NCBI RefSeq assembly: GCF_003018115.1
Contig: NZ_CP027457.1
Source of the DNA: Escherichia coli
GTDB lineage: Bacteria > Pseudomonadota > Gammaproteobacteria > Enterobacterales > Enterobacteriaceae
Reading direction: 5' to 3' (one strand)
DNA: 64,000 bases
Positions 3,896 through 48,394 of this stretch are shown here, one piece after another (within the stretch, counting starts at the first letter, position 1; the number at the start of each line of letters is the position of its first letter). Below the pieces are notes generated by a model, which saw only the letters and a program-made list of their open reading frames with translations, searched no databases and was not told the origin of the DNA. Made by a program: the position numbers and the translations under genes.

Positions 3896-11878
<7,983 letters not shown>

Positions 11879-12191
11879 GCTTACCTTCCCTGAACGAGCT
11901 AACATAAATGCGCCCTTTCTAGCACAGCGAAAAAATGTAAATCCTGATAGCAATATGATTGAAAATTAATAACTTTTCGTTAGGCAGTTTTGGGGGTGAG
12001 TTGCAAGAGGGGAGACTACTGAATAACTCAAGTTTTATAATCGAGGGGAAAATGGTGATGGCGTTCATAGCAAAACGCCCTCAACCATAAAGGTCGAGGG
12101 CGCTTAAGATGTTAAAAACCCGCTATCCGTTAAAAAACAATGTTCAACTAAGGTCAGTGACATTGCGCTAAAAAAGCGAATTTTTAGAATT

Positions 12192-12267
12192 TGGCTCCTC
12201 TGACTGGACTCGAACCAGTGACATACGGATTAACAGTCCGCCGTTCTACCGACTGAACTACAGAGGA
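12192..12267 (-). tRNA. asnT: tRNA-Asn (GTT)
   Basis: Reverse complement reads TCCTCTGTAGTTCAGTCGGTAGAACGGCGGACTGTTAATCCGTATGTCACTGGTTCGAGTCCAGTCAGAGGAGCCA, the canonical E. coli tRNA-Asn with CCA end. Confidence 0.9.
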
Positions 12268-13258: not shown

Positions 13259-13348
13259 GGAGAGATGCCGGAGCGGCTGAACGGACCGGTCTCGAAAACC
13301 GGAGTAGGGGCAACTCTACCGGGGGTTCAAATCCCCCTCTCTCCGCCA
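13259..13348 (+). tRNA. serU: tRNA-Ser (long variable arm; CGA anticodon type)
   Basis: Sequence GGAGAGATGCCGGAGCGGCTGAACGGACCGGTCTCGAAAACCGGAGTAGGGGCAACTCTACCGGGGGTTCAAATCCCCCTCTCTCCGCCA matches E. coli tRNA-Ser. Confidence 0.9.
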
Positions 13349-22756: not shown

Positions 22757-23321
22757 TATGTATTCCCTTGTGATTATAATCTTCATGAATATATCAATAA
22801 GTGCCGTTATCCAAAAAAAGCACATTTGGATACTATTCTATGAAGTTCATTTTATTTTAAGGATTGCATGTAACAAATGTATTTAAAAGATTTCAAAATG
22901 TTTCTAATCTATTTAATATAATTCAGGATTATGAATTCTGAATATAAACATTCATGAAGATTATAAATGCATATCAATATGTTATGAGTTGAGCGGAAAC
23001 ATAGGGGGTATCAATGATTGTTGCGCCAAACGGCTGGTGTGATCAGGCGCACATTAATGAAGGCATAAAAAAAAGCCGGCATCATGCCGGCCCAAAAAAT
23101 ATAAACAAGACGATAAAAGGCTAATAACGGTAGCATCATGACACAGAATAATAAAAAGGTATAATTGTAATCAGTGCTAATATATTGATTAAATGAATTA
23201 ATAAAGCCGATATCAAAGATAAATAAAATCGCTCAAAACGATTTTTCCTGTATTCACTGCCGTTGCGCAAAATTTATCTATTTGTTCAAAAAATGATTGA
23301 GTCTTGACTGGCTCATCCAAT

Positions 23322-23687
23322 GTGGAAAAATGTGACTTTTATCACATAATAGTACTAAGTCTGAATTTTCCGGGTTATCTCAAAATGGAATACGGTTCGA
23401 CAAAGATGGAAGAGAGACTCTCTCGCAGCCCTGGCGGCAAACTGGCTTTGTGGGCTTTCTATACATGGTGTGGCTATTTCGTCTGGGCAATGGCGCGTTA
23501 CATCTGGGTGATGAGCCGGATCCCCGATGCCCCCGTGTCGGGATTTGAAAGCGATTTAGGCTCTACCGCGGGAAAGTGGTTAGGGGCACTGGTCGGATTT
23601 TTATTTATGGCTCTGGTCGGGGCATTGTTAGGCAGCATTGCCTGGTACACCCGACCTCGTCCCGCACGTAGCAGACGCTATGAATAA
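23322..23687 (+). CDS. yedR: Small inner-membrane protein (two predicted TM helices)
   Basis: ORF ending ...LGSIAWYTRPRPARSRRYE; the exact start is uncertain (GTG at 23322, TTG at 23304 or ATG at 23385). Confidence 0.55.
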   Translation: MEKCDFYHIIVLSLNFPGYLKMEYGSTKMEERLSRSPGGKLALWAFYTWCGYFVWAMARYIWVMSRIPDAPVSGFESDLGSTAGKWLGALVGFLFMALVGALLGSIAWYTRPRPARSRRYE

Positions 23688-23726
23688 AAACTGCTAAGGT
23701 GGCGACTCTTTGGCAACGGAGCGCGT

Positions 23727-24422
23727 ATGGACTTACAACACTGGCAGGCACAGTTCGAAAACTGGTTGAAAAACCATCATCAGCACCAGGACGCGGCCCA
23801 TGACGTGTGTCATTTTCGCCGCGTCTGGGCTACGGCACAGAAGCTGGCGGCAGATGACGATGTCGATATGCTGGTGATTTTGACCGCCTGTTATTTTCAC
23901 GATATTGTGAGCCTGGCGAAAAATCATCCGCAAAGGCAGCGTTCTTCAATCCTGGCGGCAGAAGAGACGCGTCGCCTGCTCCGTGAAGAGTTCGAGCAAT
24001 TTCCGGCGGAGAAAATCGAGGCCGTTTGTCATGCCATTGCCGCTCACAGTTTCAGCGCGCAAATCGCCCCCTTAACAACGGAAGCTAAAATCGTCCAGGA
24101 TGCGGATCGGCTGGAAGCCCTGGGGGCGATTGGCCTGGCGCGCGTGTTTGCCGTTTCAGGGGCATTGGGCGTGGCGCTGTTTGATGGTGAAGATCCGTTC
24201 GCACAGCATCGCCCGCTTGATGATAAACGCTACGCGCTGGATCATTTCCAGACTAAGTTGCTGAAGCTACCGCAAACCATGCAAACCGCAAGAGGCAAGC
24301 AGCTGGCGCAGCACAACGCGCATTTTTTAGTCGAGTTTATGGCGAAGCTCAGTGCCGAACTGGCGGGGGAGAATGAAGGTGTCGATCACAAGGTAATAGA
24401 TGCGTTTTCATCCGCTGGCTGA
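23727..24422 (+). CDS. yedJ: HD-domain phosphohydrolase (231 aa)
   Basis: HD motif region (HDVCHFRRV...YFHDIV) and full-length agreement with recalled YedJ. Confidence 0.85.
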
Positions 24423-24488
24423 GCGCGTGGCCCTAAATGGCTGTAATTATGTTAACCTGTCGGCCATCTCAGATGGCCGGTGAAATCT

Positions 24489-25907
24489 ATGCAGGAAAAT
24501 ATATCAGTAACCGATTCATACAGCACCGGGAATGCCGCACAGGCAATGCTGGAGAAACTGCTGCAAATTTATGATGTTAAAACGCTGGTGGCGCAGCTTA
24601 ATGGTGTGGGTGAGAATCACTGGAGCGCGGCAATTTTAAAACGTGCGCTGGCGAATGACTCGGCATGGCACCGTTTAAGTGAGAAAGAGTTCGCCCATCT
24701 GCAAACGTTGTTACCCAAACCACCGGCACATCATCCGCATTATGCGTTTCGCTTTATCGATCTATTTGCCGGAATTGGCGGCATCCGTCGCGGTTTTGAA
24801 TCGATTGGCGGACAATGCGTGTTTACCAGCGAATGGAACAAACATGCGGTACGCACTTATAAAGCCAATCATTATTGCGACCCGGCGACGCATCATTTTA
24901 ATGAAGATATCCGCGACATCACCCTCAGCCATAAAGAAGGCGTGAGTGATGAGGCGGCGGCGGAACATATTCGTCAACACATTCCTGAACACGATGTTTT
25001 ACTGGCCGGTTTCCCTTGTCAGCCATTTTCGCTGGCTGGCGTATCGAAAAAGAACTCGCTCGGGCGGGCGCACGGTTTTGCCTGCGATACTCAGGGCACG
25101 CTGTTCTTTGATGTGGTGCGCATTATCGACGCGCGTCGTCCGGCGATGTTTGTGCTCGAAAACGTCAAAAACCTGAAAAGCCACGACCAGGGTAAAACGT
25201 TCCGCATCATCATGCAGACGCTGGACGAACTGGGCTATGACGTGGCTGATGCAGAAGATAACGGGCCGGACGATCCGAAAATCATCGATGGTAAACATTT
25301 TCTGCCGCAGCACCGTGAACGCATCGTGCTGGTGGGTTTTCGTCGCGATCTGAATCTGAAAGCCGATTTTACCCTGCGTGATATCAGCGGATGTTTCCCT
25401 GCGCAGCGAGTGACGCTGGCGCAGCTGCTGGACCCGATGGTCGAGGCGAAATATATCCTGACGCCGGTGCTGTGGAAGTACCTCTATCGTTATGCGAAAA
25501 AACATCAGGCGCGCGGTAACGGCTTCGGTTATGGAATGGTTTATCCGAACAATCCGCAAAGCGTCACGCGTACGCTGTCTGCGCGTTATTACAAAGATGG
25601 CGCGGAAATTTTAATCGATCGCGGATGGGATATGGCCACGGGTGAAAAAGACTTTGACGATCCGCTGAATCAGCAACATCGTCCACGTCGGTTAACGCCT
25701 CGGGAATGCGCGCGCTTAATGGGTTTTGAAGCGCCGGGAGAAGCGAAATTCCGCATTCCGGTTTCGGACACTCAGGCCTATCGCCAGTTCGGTAACTCGG
25801 TGGTCGTGCCAGTCTTTGCCGCGGTGGCAAAACTGCTTGAGCCAAAAATCAAACAGGCGGTGGCGTTGCGTCAGCAAGAGGCACAACATGGCCGACGTTC
25901 ACGATAA
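24489..25907 (+). CDS. dcm: DNA cytosine-5 methyltransferase (CCWGG), 472 aa
   Basis: C5-MTase motifs FAGIGG (motif I) and GFPCQPFS (PC motif), ENV motif; N-terminus [11 protein letters not shown]... Confidence 0.9.
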
Positions 25908-26358
25908 GGCCACGCGCAGCAAAAATATGCGCGCGATTGCCACGCGTGATACGGCGATTGAGAAGCGCCTCGCCAGTTTGTTAACCGGGCAGGGCCTGGC
26001 GTTTCGCGTTCAGGACGCCAGTCTGCCCGGACGCCCGGATTTTGTCGTTGATGAATATCGCTGCGTGATATTTACCCACGGCTGCTTCTGGCATCATCAT
26101 CACTGCTATCTGTTTAAAGTGCCTGCGACTCGAACCGAGTTCTGGCTGGAGAAGATAGGTAAAAATGTTGAGCGCGATCGCCGCGATATCAGTCGCTTGC
26201 AGGAACTCGGCTGGCGCGTATTGATTGTCTGGGAGTGCGCGTTACGTGGGCGCGAGAAGCTGACGGATGAAGCGCTTAGCGAGCGTCTGGAAGAGTGGAT
26301 CTGCGGCGAAGGTGCCAGCGCGCAGATCGACACGCAGGGGATTCATTTACTCGCTTGA
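25888..26358 (+). CDS. vsr: Very-short-patch repair endonuclease (156 aa); start overlaps the dcm 3-prime end in a different frame
   Basis: ATG at 25888 inside dcm; protein [28 protein letters not shown]... matches Vsr. Confidence 0.9.
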
Positions 26359-27267
26359 TGCGTCCTGAATAACTGGCGCAACTACGGGTTTTGCCGGGAA
26401 GAGATATTTTCCCAACGTTACCAGTACCACCGCGAAGACAATTACGCCGAGCGCCAGCCATTCAATCTTCGACAGTGTTTCTCCACCCAGTCCCGTACCC
26501 AGCAAGACCGCGACCACCGGGTTAACGTAAGCGTAGCTGGTGGCGAGAGCCGGACTGACATTACGGATTAAATACATATAAGCGTTGATGGCGATAATCG
26601 AACCAAACAGCGCCAGATAGCCGACCGCAAGGAAGCCTGAAAGGGAAGGGAGCGCCGTCAGTTTTTCACCCGCAATCATCGACGCGATCATTAACACCAC
26701 GCCTGCCGCCAGCATCTCAATCGCACCCGCCATCATCCCTACAGGTAAGGTAATGCGCGAGCCATAAACTGAGCCAAACGCCCAGCTAATCGAGCCGATT
26801 AAAATCAGAATCGCGCCCCACGGATTGCCGCTTAAATTTCCACCGCTATTGAGCATGATGATTCCGGCAAGCCCAATGGCAATACCCACCCATTCCAGTT
26901 TGCGCGTTTTAATGCCAAACAGGCGGCTGAAGCACAGGGTAAAGAGGGGCACGGTTGCAACCACTACGGCGGCGATGCCGGAAGGAACATTTTGATGTTC
27001 GGCAACCGTCACCATGCCATTACCGACAGCCAGCAATAACAGGCCAATCAGCGCGGCATTGAGCAGCGGACGTAGCGGGGGGAGTTTGTGTCCGCGCAGT
27101 AGCAAAAATGCCAGCAATAAAATACCGGCTGCCAGGAATCGAACGCCCGCCATCATTAACGGAGGCCAGCTTTCCACGCCAATCCGAATGACAAAATAGG
27201 TTGAGCCCCAAATGATATACAACGCAAACAGCGCGCCAAAAAGCGGTAACAACTGGCGGAAACGCAT
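26347..27267 (-). CDS. yedA: EamA/DMT family transporter (306 aa)
   Basis: Ten predicted TM helices with two EamA repeats; position after vsr fits yedA. Confidence 0.85.
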   Translation of the reverse strand: MRFRQLLPLFGALFALYIIWGSTYFVIRIGVESWPPLMMAGVRFLAAGILLLAFLLLRGHKLPPLRPLLNAALIGLLLLAVGNGMVTVAEHQNVPSGIAAVVVATVPLFTLCFSRLFGIKTRKLEWVGIAIGLAGIIMLNSGGNLSGNPWGAILILIGSISWAFGSVYGSRITLPVGMMAGAIEMLAAGVVLMIASMIAGEKLTALPSLSGFLAVGYLALFGSIIAINAYMYLIRNVSPALATSYAYVNPVVAVLLGTGLGGETLSKIEWLALGVIVFAVVLVTLGKYLFPAKPVVAPVIQDASSE

Positions 27268-31492: not shown

Positions 31493-31579
31493 AACACATC
31501 AGATTTCCTGGTGTAACGAATTTTTTAAGTGCTTCTTGCTTAAGCAAGTTTCATCCCGACCCCCTCAGGGTCGGGATTT
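31493..31579 (+). ncRNA. dsrA: DsrA small regulatory RNA (Hfq-dependent; acts on rpoS and hns mRNAs)
   Basis: Sequence AACACATCAGATTTCCTGGTGTAACGAATTTTTTAAGTGCTTCTTGCTTAAGCAAGTTTCATCCCGACCCCCTCAGGGTCGGGATTT matches DsrA including its terminal stem-loop and U-tract. Confidence 0.85.
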
Positions 31580-44106: not shown

Positions 44107-44439
44107 GTTTTGTAACCTGTTGTTGATTACATCCGATCTCACCGCGTGGGGCATGGATGGGGCAAATTCACTCATTTTCTGGTTTAAAATGGATACCTGA
44201 TCCTGAAAGTTTTCTGCCATCCACGATCTGTATACGCGATAACATGTTTTGTCTTCGCTTTGCTCATAGGAAGAGTGAACTCTTTTGTTAGCCTGGGGTT
44301 CCTTCTGATCATTATTGTTCCTGCCTTTATCTCTTGCCACGCCAGAGCCCCCTGGATACACATACACCAGGATGAAAACGGTGAGTTGTGTTCAAACTGT
44401 AGTACAATTCTCTCCAGTATGAACAGGAAAGAATATGCT

Positions 44440-44772
44440 ATGAACCCTTATATTTATCTTGGTGGCGCAATACTTGCAGAGGTCATTGGTACAACCTTAA
44501 TGAAGTTTTCAGAGGGGTTTACACGGTTATGGCCCTCTGTTGGCACAATTATTTGCTATTGTGCATCATTCTGGTTATTAGCTCAGACACTGGCTTATAT
44601 ACCTACAGGGATTGCTTATGCTATCTGGTCAGGAGTCGGTATCGTTCTGATTAGTTTGCTTTCCTGGGGATTTTTTGGTCAACGACTGGACCTGCCAGCC
44701 ATCATAGGCATGATGTTGATTTGTGCCGGTGTGTTAGTCATTAACTTGTTGTCACGAAGTGCACCGCATTAA
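44440..44772 (+). CDS. emrE: SMR-family multidrug efflux transporter (EmrE-like, 110 aa)
   Basis: Sequence MNPYIYLGGAILAEVIGTTLMKFSEGFTRLW... with the conserved membrane-embedded Glu (AEV); near-identical to my recollection of K-12 EmrE. Track ORF is over-extended upstream. Confidence 0.8.
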   Translation: MNPYIYLGGAILAEVIGTTLMKFSEGFTRLWPSVGTIICYCASFWLLAQTLAYIPTGIAYAIWSGVGIVLISLLSWGFFGQRLDLPAIIGMMLICAGVLVINLLSRSAPH

Positions 44773-44940
44773 AAAATAATCATCCTTGAGATAACAGGAA
44801 TCTGATTTGTGCATATTATGGCTAATGTTCGGGGCAACTTTATAATTATGATTGCATTTGCGCGATCATTGCGCCTTTTTGCATAATGAGATCAAGGCAC
44901 ATCAAATAAAATAACGATAGGTCACAACAAAGAGGTTTTT

Positions 44941-45492
44941 ATGAAAAAACTTATCGTTTCAAGTGTATTGGCATTCATAACATTTTCTGCGCAGGCCGCA
45001 GCATTTCAGGTCACTAGTAATGAAATAAAAACAGGAGAGCAACTTACAACGTCTCATGTATTTTCTGGATTTGGGTGTGAGGGGGGTAATACATCGCCCT
45101 CATTAACCTGGTCTGGTGCTCCAGAAGGCACCAAAAGCTTTGCCGTAACTGTGTATGATCCAGATGCGCCTACAGGCAGTGGATGGTGGCACTGGACTGT
45201 TGCTAATATTCCAGCAACGGTAACATATTTGCCCGCTGATGCAGGAAGACGTGATGGTACAAAACTTCCGACTGGTGCTGTCCAAGGCCGAAATGATTTT
45301 GGCTATGCGGGATTTGGTGGAGCATGTCCTCCCAAAGGAGATAAACCCCATCATTACCAGTTTAAAATATGGGCTCTAAAAACTGATAAGATTCCTGTGG
45401 ATTCTAATTCCAGCGGAGCGTTAGTTGGTTATATGCTTAATGCCAATAAAATTGCAACCGCTGAGATAACACCCGTTTATGAGGTAAAGTAG
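44941..45492 (+). CDS. Periplasmic PEBP/RKIP-family protein (YbcL-like, 183 aa)
   Basis: Signal peptide MKKLIVSSVLAFITFSAQA and PEBP core (DPDAP...HHY); resembles the DLP12-encoded YbcL. Confidence 0.75.
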   Translation: MKKLIVSSVLAFITFSAQAAAFQVTSNEIKTGEQLTTSHVFSGFGCEGGNTSPSLTWSGAPEGTKSFAVTVYDPDAPTGSGWWHWTVANIPATVTYLPADAGRRDGTKLPTGAVQGRNDFGYAGFGGACPPKGDKPHHYQFKIWALKTDKIPVDSNSSGALVGYMLNANKIATAEITPVYEVK

Positions 45493-45501
45493 GATAAGAG
45501 T

Positions 45502-46299
45502 ATGCTGGCAAAAGATAGGACTAACCTAAAGATTGAAGAAATACGGATGCATAAACATCATGAGATTCACAGGGTTAAGCCTCTTATGCCAGCTTTATGT
45601 CGTATCCGTCAGGGAAAAAAAGTTATCAATTGGGAGACGCATAGTCTAACTGTTGATAATAATCAGATAATATTATTTCCCTGTGGATATGAATTTTATA
45701 TTGCGAATTACCCAGAAGCAGGTCTTTATCTTGCAGAAATGCTTTATTATCCCATTGATCTAATTGAAAAGTTCCAAAATCTTTATGCGATAACCGATCA
45801 AATTCGTAACACGACAGGTTTCTGCTTACCTCAGAATCCCGAGTTAATATATTGTTGGGAGCAACTAAAAACATCTATTTCCCGAGGCTTCTCAACGCAA
45901 ATTCAGGAACACTTAGCAATGGGCGTTCTACTTTCATTAGGAGCACATCATGTTAATTGTTTACTTTTATCAGATAGTAAACAATCATTAATAAGTCGTT
46001 GTTATAACCTAATGCTATCCGAACCTGGAACAAAATGGACAGCAAACAAGGTAGCGAGATATCTCTACATTTCTGTTTCCACATTGCATCGCCGTCTGGC
46101 AAGCGAGGGAGTAAGTTTTCAAAGTATATTGGACGACGTGAGGTTAAATAATGCGTTGTCTGCTATACAAACGACAGTAAAACCCATCAGCGAGATTGCC
46201 AGAGAAAGTGGTTACAAGTGTCCTTCTCGTTTTACTGAAAGGTTCCATAATCGTTTTAAGATAACACCAAGAGAGCTAAGAAAAGCGTCCAGAGAGTAA
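45502..46299 (+). CDS. AraC/XylS-family transcriptional regulator (YbcM-like, 265 aa)
   Basis: C-terminal AraC-type HTH (...[30 protein letters not shown]); AGGA RBS 9 nt upstream; starts 10 bp after the PEBP gene stop (operon-like). Confidence 0.7.
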
Positions 46300-46800
46300 A
46301 AGTATTTTATGAAGGAGCAACAGCATCGATTTTTATTTTGGAAAATAAATACGGCATACTCAACCTATTGGAGCCTGAACAATCCGGTGACTTCTGCGCT
46401 AATCGGGGACGTTTATAAGCACATATAATTGATACTATCTTCCTCCATCACAATTTCAGAAATGCACGTGTGATTTTTTTGCATCCGGCGTTTGGACTAT
46501 GTGGAGTTCAAGAGTGGGAAAGTTACAAGAGGTTGAGGGGATAATTAAAGGGATGCTTATGACATTAGATATCCGGTTAGGTACGGATATCGTTGTTATT
46601 AAATCTAATTGATACGTTAATTGTTCACTGAGTATTATTAAAAATGGGGCGTTGAAACGCCCCAGAAAATAAAGGGTAATATATAACAGAAGGTTTATAT
46701 AGTCAGAAGCAAGATAGTGCTTCTAAGGAAAGTGGTTTGAGGGCGCCACTTATATGTTGGGGAGGCAAAGCCTCCCACAACATATCTTTGAGTAATCAGA

Positions 46801-47883
46801 TTAGAACTGGTAAACCAATCCTACAGCAACGATATCATCGGTAGCAACGCCAGATGCTTTCGTGAAATCGCTCTTATCAATCAGGTTGATTTTGTAATCA
46901 ACAAAAGTGGACATATTTTTGTTGAAGTAATAGGTTGCACCTACATCAATATATTCAACCAGGTCCTGATCACCCCACGCACCCAAGTCTTTTCCTTTAG
47001 ATTGCAGGTAAGCAACGGACGGACGCAGACCGAAGTCGAACTGATATTGTGCAACTACTTCAAAGTTTTGTGCTTTGTTGGCAATATGGTTATTACCAAA
47101 AACAGTCATGTTCTGGGTTTCAGAATAGGTGGTAGCCAGATAGATGTTGTTCGCATCATATTTCAGACCAGCTGCCCATACTTCAGCATTTTGACCAGAT
47201 GCATTCAGGCTGTTGTTACCGTAGATAACCTGATCATTAGTGCGGTCAGATTTAGCATAGGTTGCACCTACACCGAATCCTTCATACTCATAAGTAGTGG
47301 AGAAACCGAAACCATCACCGTTAGCTTCAGTTACGTCAGTGCGGTCATTTTTACCCTGATACTGAGCAGCAAAGTTCAGACCATCAACCAGACCAAAGAA
47401 GTCGTTGTTACGATAAGTTGCAACACCTGTGGTGCGACCAGTCATGAACACATCTGTTTGGGTCCAGGTATCGCCACCGAATTCTGGCAGAACGTCGGTC
47501 CATGCACCGATATCGTATGCTACACCGTAGTTACGGCCATAATCGATGGAGCCGTAGTCACCGAATTTCAGGCCAGCGAAGGCAAGACGGGTTTTATCTT
47601 TGGAAGAACCTTGAGATTCAGCACGGTTGCCTTTGAATTCATATTCCCACTGACCGAAACCAGTCAGTTGATCGTTGATTTGAGTTTCGCCTTTGAAGCC
47701 CAGACGAACATAAGTTGTGTCGCCATCATCTGCATCGTTAGAAGAGAAGTAGTGCTTAGCATTAACTTTTCCGTACAGATCCAGCTTGTTACTGTCTTTA
47801 TTGTAAATCTCTGCTGCCTGAGCAGACATCGCCATCAGTACTGATGCAGCTACAGCAGAAATTGCCACTGTTAATTTTTTCAT
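46801..47883 (-). CDS. General bacterial porin, OmpC/OmpF family, NmpC/Lc-like (360 aa)
   Basis: Signal peptide [23 protein letters not shown], motif [17 protein letters not shown]-terminal ...[10 protein letters not shown]-terminus matches my recollection of NmpC-type porins. Confidence 0.8.
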
Positions 47884-48394
47884 CGTGAGCCCTTTTATTT
47901 GAACTATTATTTAAAAATGATGTCACTGCACCACAAATATTCATCTAATCAATGAGATTATTTCAAGATGTAAGTTTTAGTTTCTCATTTAAATTGTGAA
48001 GTAGATCCCTATTTTTATCTGAACTGTTTCTATTGCACACAATGCATGACTATTTTGTGAACGAATATAAATTTGGTAGTCAAATTATATTAAAGGTTGT
48101 TATTTATGATTGACTCATAATTTATTTTTTTAATTTAAATAGCCTGAAAATAACTATAGAAATTATTTGTATGATATTTGTTTAGATTTATTAATGTAAT
48201 TTAGGTGGTTTTATTTAATACGCAATATAGCGCCGCTTGATATTAGTTCTATTTTTTTGCGTAAGATAGATGAGACAAAACTGAGACGCATAATGGTTTG
48301 CAAGGCTCTAATACTTTGATGTTGAGGATGTGATGGGGCATGTACGGGCATAGTACAATGATGTCCATGCAGGTGTAGATAATCTCCAGGCTTA

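Follow-up and report, generated by a model that had tools for sequence, protein, structure and literature searches.

Taken as a whole, the sequence joining dcm and vsr in the 64,000-nt stretch of Escherichia coli DNA analyzed here (the window) is very likely best explained as the junction of the E. coli dcm-vsr operon, in which both genes are carried on one mRNA and vsr is translated from the ATG at position 25888 behind a Shine-Dalgarno (SD) sequence of its own. The shared mRNA is probably drpB-yedJ-dcm-vsr. The overlap between the two genes is real, conserved, already known, and in that sense ordinary; it has been textbook E. coli biology since 1990 to 1993, and nothing was identified that contradicts the dcm-vsr architecture.

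The dcm and vsr genes and their surroundings

The dcm gene (24489..25907, + strand) encodes a DNA cytosine-5 methyltransferase (CCWGG) of 472 amino acids and reads from the ATG at 24489 to the TAA at 25905..25907 (+), as supported by NCBIfam NF007772, TIGR00675, and RefSeq annotation. The vsr gene (25888..26358, + strand) encodes the very-short-patch repair T:G mismatch endonuclease, and its 156-codon frame extends from the ATG at 25888-25890 to a TGA stop at 26356-26358. Vsr repairs T:G mismatches left by deamination of Dcm-methylated cytosine. The two genes share 20 nt (25888..25907, + strand), and as (25888 − 24489) mod 3 = 1, the frame of vsr is +1 with respect to that of dcm. Seven vsr codons are begun within the overlap, which also contains six dcm sense codons and the dcm stop. 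This stop is formed from vsr codons Asp6-Lys7 (GAT AAG) and starts 17 nt 3′ of the A in the vsr ATG, giving a stop-start spacing of −20. Window positions 25880-25910 read ggcacaacATGGCCGACGTTCACGATAAgg. E. coli PD4 was 100% identical to the window across 24300-26500 (2.2 kb), and its RefSeq annotation, converted to window coordinates, placed dcm at 24489..25907 and vsr at 25888..26358. The original prediction, that the vsr start lies in another frame within the final codons of dcm, was therefore exact (25888-25907) in the sequence, in the PD4 annotation, and in K-12.

Profile searches indicated that the predicted product of 24489..25907 belongs to the Dcm-type DNA cytosine-5 methyltransferases, with 950.2 bits against NF007772 (cutoff, 710; residues 1 to 469) and 349.2 bits against TIGR00675 (cutoff, 100.65; residues 89 to 450). 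The predicted product of 25888..26358 is likewise the Vsr very-short-patch repair endonuclease, scoring 182.7 bits against TIGR00632 (cutoff, 97.85), where protein residues 1 to 118 aligned to profile positions 1 to 119. Position 1 of TIGR00632 aligned with residue 1, and thus the Vsr family profile begins at the Met encoded at 25888. The chain in PDB entry 1CW0 corresponds to Vsr residues 2 to 156. Asp51, Thr63, His64, Cys66, Phe67, Trp68, His69, His71, Cys73, Trp86, and Cys117 could all be read in the Vsr translation, and we take these to be the catalytic, zinc-binding, and intercalating residues of the structures of Tsutakawa et al. 1999. Comparison with characterized proteins, the check proposed with the original prediction, upheld both gene identities: Dcm matched K-12 at 471 of 472 residues, and Vsr matched 1CW0 at 154 of 155, the sole difference being T131S.

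The locus in E. coli K-12 MG1655 (b1961/b1960) has the same order, drpB-yedJ-dcm-vsr with yedA convergent, and the same 20-nt +1-frame overlap. There, vsr is located at 2030448..2030918 and dcm at 2030899..2032317, overlapping at 2030899..2030918 (20 nt); annotation of this identical overlap in K-12 agrees with the earlier statement that the arrangement is established biology. The junction was identical between the two strains from −60 to +25, and T131S in Vsr and E301G in Dcm were the only protein differences. The window locus is a strain-level allele of the K-12 dcm-vsr locus, and nothing of substance is different. The K-12 locus is reportedly the subject of Sohail et al. 1990, Hennecke et al. 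1991, and Dar and Bhagwat 1993. Among 5,426 complete E. coli genomes, the 2.2-kb locus was matched in 5,367, and a 120-nt probe centered on the junction was found at ≥95% identity in 5,319, always under dcm and vsr annotations. By megablast, the remaining 59 genomes did not match the 2.2-kb locus. Two of the matches obtained were on records typed as plasmids.

Upstream of dcm, the PD4 annotation places drpB (yedR) at 23406..23687 (+) and yedJ at 23727..24422 (+). On the other side of the pair, yedA lies at 26347..27267 (−) in window coordinates. The ends of vsr (+, 26358) and yedA (−, 26347) overlap tail to tail by 12 nt (26347-26358), as is also annotated in K-12, and vsr therefore overlaps a neighbor at both ends.

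Several further features were observed elsewhere in the window. Hits at the Rfam gathering level were obtained for the rseX sRNA (23068-23157, −), just upstream of drpB, the DsrA sRNA (31493-31579, +), and two tRNAs (12195-12267, −, and 13259-13345, +), annotated as Asn and Ser in PD4. An accessory island of ∼4.1 kb at 44243-48378, between the fliE and yedK regions, is missing from strain PD4. In other E. coli this island carries an OmpC-family porin gene, ybcM, ybcL, and emrE (DLP12-like prophage-remnant genes), and it is present at full length in 922 of the 5,426 complete genomes. Self-similarity of 86 to 88% identity with an offset of ∼610 nt was found at 7453-8843, within a gene of ∼8 kb (∼3898-11880, −) annotated as an Ig-like domain-containing protein; this reflects domains repeated in tandem within a giant gene of the adhesin type.

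Arrangement of vsr across Enterobacteriaceae

Relatives were collected by a Vsr protein scan with one genome per species. From the 255 found, 80 were taken (77 to 98% Vsr identity), giving 81 loci with the window included. The dcm gene overlaps vsr at 58 of the 81, by 20 nt ending in TAA at 50 loci, 17 nt at four, 14 nt at two, and 35 nt at two. The overlap exists because the dcm frame continues past the vsr start until it meets the TAA made by vsr Asp6-Lys7, and its length follows the vsr codons. In Siccibacter, GAC replaces GAT at vsr codon 6 (a synonymous change in vsr), the TAA is lost, and dcm ends instead at the TAA in Ser12-Lys13 (AGT AAA), generating a 35-nt overlap. Relatives with His-Asn (CAT AAT) in vsr have an earlier TAA and overlaps of 17 or 14 nt. 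At two other loci dcm is adjacent to vsr, separated by a gap of 12 or 35 nt, and at four, all from Buttiauxella (L052, L054, L058, and L063), it lies ∼0.9 to 1.0 kb upstream.

The remaining 17 loci have no dcm and are mostly arranged yedJ-vsr-yedA (L027, L034 to L036, L038, L040, L045, L046, L056, L057, L059, L061, L066, L068, L071, L074, and L082). These species, which include Kosakonia, Phytobacter, Klebsiella oxytoca, K. spallanzanii, Pseudescherichia, and others, carry an intact vsr with no dcm within 2.5 kb upstream, and vsr is usually found 12 to 40 nt behind yedJ with a stronger SD. A dcm remnant was identified in Klebsiella indica (L032, 2317-2520), where an internal deletion fuses approximately residue 347 to the C-terminal tail while the 20-nt overlap is kept, which shows dcm loss by deletion.

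Genes encoding a C5-methylase and a Vsr homologue also occur together in M-V-R type II restriction-modification cassettes on plasmids of Agrobacterium, Sphingomonas, and Pseudomonas. In these, the vsr homologue (41 to 46% identity) is located directly 3′ of the methylase gene in the same orientation, with an annotated overlap of 8 nt in Agrobacterium and overlaps of ∼8 nt (Sphingomonas) and ∼1 nt (Pseudomonas) implied by the starts of the tblastn matches. A restriction endonuclease gene follows in the cassettes; the methylase of the E. coli dcm-vsr pair is solitary, and the 20-nt overlap there is longer. Judged from these junctions, adjacency of a methylase gene and vsr with touching frames is general, and the 20-nt length is an enterobacterial peculiarity.

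Within the annotated 50 kb of the window, dcm/vsr has the longest co-directional overlap; all others (hprR/S, fliP/O, fliN/M, fliK/J, fliI/H, fliH/G, fliG/F, and yedF/E) are of 1, 4, or 8 nt. Classical ATGA/TGATG pairs with −4 or −1 spacing, such as the fli genes of the window, resemble dcm-vsr in being co-directional operon neighbors with overlapping stop and start regions. However, a ribosome terminating on dcm sits 17 nt beyond the vsr start codon rather than on it. To our knowledge, Dcm and Vsr have not been reported to form a stoichiometric complex. Short overlaps are over-represented in genes whose products do form such complexes (PMC10666635).

Transcription and translation of vsr

An SD-like sequence, AAGAGG, was read at 25876..25881 (+), 6 nt 5′ of the vsr ATG and within the dcm codons Gln-Glu-Ala. 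We infer that it acts as the SD for vsr; its duplex with the anti-SD was predicted at −5.8 kcal/mol. The GAG core (−10 to −8) had entropies of 0.00, 0.25, and 0.73 bits compared with 1.2 to 1.9 bits at −7 to −1, and is the least variable element among the otherwise variable last ten Dcm codons. This conservation may reflect SD function or a conserved Glu. When the 58 overlapping loci were compared with the 23 non-overlapping loci, anti-SD pairing was weaker in the presence of a dcm overlap (median, −5.8 versus −7.6 kcal/mol; Mann-Whitney p = 0.005, uncorrected for phylogeny), the SD of the overlapping class being also under dcm coding constraint.

No conserved structure masking the vsr SD or ATG was identified in an RNAalifold consensus of 49 species (total, −6.9 kcal/mol), in which the columns of both elements were unpaired. 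Coupling by RNA unfolding, which relies on a conserved structure masking the ribosome-binding site, thus finds no support in the comparison. Taken singly, the E. coli sequence folded somewhat better than shuffled sequences (z = −2.6), with the ATG in a loop and the SD mostly unpaired in the minimum free energy structure. This single-sequence fold was rejected as a masking structure, having no support across species.

The original prediction took the overlap to mean that the two genes are translationally coupled. The overlap by itself does not prove coupling, which is a literature result. According to Dar and Bhagwat 1993, efficient Vsr synthesis is said to need translation of the upstream dcm. 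A passage of PMC4444293 citing Dar and Bhagwat 1993 states that dcm-6, a nonsense mutation at codon 45, abolishes vsr activity too, an effect equally compatible with (Rho-dependent) transcriptional polarity. Full-text literature searches identified no explicit statement of dcm-vsr translational coupling. Common coupling geometries are −4 and −1, with efficiency dropping steeply with stop-start distance (PMC12548453; PMC10666635), and the spacing of −20 found for dcm-vsr is neither of these. VSP repair and Vsr have additionally been reported to be growth-phase dependent (PMC2715241; PMC12907096), which implies some control separate from Dcm, beyond a fixed ratio. The −20 spacing, the presence of an SD belonging to vsr, the lack of a conserved masking structure, and this growth-phase dependence all weigh against strict coupling.

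The best reading would be a mixed mechanism, in which vsr uses its own SD with help from ribosomes translating dcm. Ribosomes that pass through the vsr ribosome-binding site while translating dcm would promote vsr initiation, and three routes can be envisaged: a dcm ribosome could terminate and reinitiate 17 nt upstream at the vsr ATG, translation of dcm could keep the ribosome-binding site accessible, or it could prevent polarity. The vsr SD would permit some independent initiation, and the Vsr:Dcm ratio would thus not be fixed.

Alternatively, there may be no real coupling, with free 30S subunits loading on the vsr SD, the overlap being an evolutionary accident set by the position of the first in-frame dcm stop, and the loss of Vsr in dcm nonsense mutants resulting from Rho-dependent polarity or mRNA decay. 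This was judged unlikely given that loci with an overlap have significantly weaker SDs than those without, that the overlap is exactly 20 nt at 50 of the 58 overlapping loci (although conservation of the Vsr N terminus would also give that), and that Dar and Bhagwat 1993 reportedly concluded that efficient Vsr synthesis requires dcm translation. It retains some weight from the position of AAGAGG 6 nt upstream of the ATG, from the 17 relatives in which vsr stands behind yedJ without dcm and the two with a 12- or 35-nt gap, from the ease with which near-neutral changes in vsr codons 5 and 6 move the overlap length, and from the strong distance dependence of reinitiation (PMC12548453; PMC10666635) coupled with the lack of a conserved masking structure.

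A more elaborate reading, in which the junction is a conserved translational control module setting the Vsr:Dcm ratio, for example in the growth-phase dependence of Vsr, was considered improbable. Such a module could combine the GAG SD core, preserved as a codon for Glu within a Dcm tail that otherwise varies freely, with a dcm stop located 17 nt beyond the vsr ATG and a hairpin with a 5-bp stem at 25929-25947.

This weakly supported candidate hairpin (GCGCG...CGCGT) consists of five GC-rich base pairs within vsr codons 14 to 20, 22 nt downstream of the dcm stop. Conserved Met-Arg-Ala and Thr-Arg codons fix four of these pairs. The fifth, which joins the third bases of Arg15 and Thr19, is free to vary; it alternates between C:G, G:C, and U:G and is formed at 46 of the 58 dcm-overlap loci (79%) compared with 3 of the 23 non-overlap loci. 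None of 500 shuffles reached the observed covariation value, which ranked among the highest 0.8% of column pairs at third positions, the pair being a post hoc choice and clade structured. In Salmonella, Klebsiella, and Raoultella the hairpin is disrupted. The stem precedes a T-run on the minus strand, where it was flagged as terminator-like.

More doubtful still is a promoter belonging to vsr inside the 3′ part of dcm, which would make its expression independent of both transcription and translation of dcm. An internal promoter would simply explain the growth-phase dependence of VSP repair and Vsr, and a microarray-derived CpxR regulon table lists vsr alone, with an ∼2-fold change. However, a crude scan for σ70 promoters only identified no consensus match within dcm, the sole promoter-like hit across 23600-26600 being at 23880, and the 3′ half of dcm contained no terminator-like site on the + strand. 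Full-length transcript reads span yedR (drpB), yedJ, dcm, and vsr as one operon (bioRxiv 10.1101/262964), and the literature likewise treats the pair as a single operon, with dcm and vsr described as co-transcribed in PMC4924334 and in a passage of PMC12907096 that cites Sohail 1990. The loss of vsr activity with the nonsense mutation at dcm codon 45, as given in the passage of PMC4444293, also argues against a separate promoter. Expression from the shared operon mRNA remains the preferred reading.

The vsr start and the constrained frame

To locate the constrained frame, mean column entropy by codon position was calculated from 49 different junctions with the 20-nt overlap. On the 5′ side of the vsr ATG, entropy peaked at dcm position 3 (1.25 bits compared with 0.60 to 0.75 at the other positions). 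Within the overlap, vsr position 3 was the highest (0.82 bits) and dcm position 3 was nearly invariant (0.03 bits); downstream of the overlap, entropy was still highest at vsr position 3 (1.09 bits). The substitution phase thus flips exactly at 25888, providing independent evidence that the true vsr start lies there. With the junction present in 5,319 E. coli genomes and an overlap retained at 58 of 81 loci, this frame switch marks the structure as no product of chance. Across the same 49 junctions, mean pairwise identity was 85% for Vsr residues 2 to 6 compared with 56% for the last six Dcm residues, which vary (HGRRSR, HGGRSR, NDGCAQ, and others). As substitutions change to vsr third positions at the ATG, vsr bears the constraint, and the final six residues of Dcm form a tolerated tail. 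TIGR00675 ends at Dcm residue 450, and the overlapped codons 467 to 472 therefore encode a dispensable-looking tail, ∼20 residues past the last conserved methylase motif.

The original prediction also correctly identified that the ORF track over-extends vsr by 54 codons. The mechanical ORF, 25726..26358, starts at a TTG and encodes 210 amino acids (156 + 54). Its spurious 5′ extension (25726..25887, +) arises from a longest-ORF rule and is simply the 3′ end of dcm read in the +1 frame. A profile search identified no family match for the 54 extra amino acids, and no SD was found in front of the TTG at 25726. In the window, 56 codons 5′ of the ATG are free of stops in the vsr frame. The frame is also open in many relatives, and in many others it contains stops 0 to 28 codons 5′ of the ATG, two Salmonella loci having the stop immediately before it. 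Substitutions within the extension keep the dcm codon phase. That Vsr is made from the TTG as a 210-aa protein, or that a +1 frameshift near the end of dcm yields a Dcm-Vsr fusion, is suggested by the open frame and was rejected as having practically no likelihood, given the extension without family match or SD, the start of both the Vsr profile and the crystallized protein (1CW0) at Met1/Ala2, the upstream substitutions in dcm phase only, and the in-frame stops in relatives, which exclude the long ORF and any conserved fusion. The mechanical ORF of dcm was also extended, beginning at a GTG at 24480, three codons before the annotated ATG at 24489, from which the Dcm subfamily profile aligns. 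In practical terms, the locus can serve as a positive control for longest-ORF callers, which misplace the vsr start by 54 codons.

The comparative data illustrate how an out-of-frame overlap is kept up, with selection acting on the N terminus encoded by the downstream gene while the upstream gene just continues to a stop formed by codons of the downstream gene, such that synonymous changes in vsr reset the overlap to 14, 17, 20, or 35 nt.
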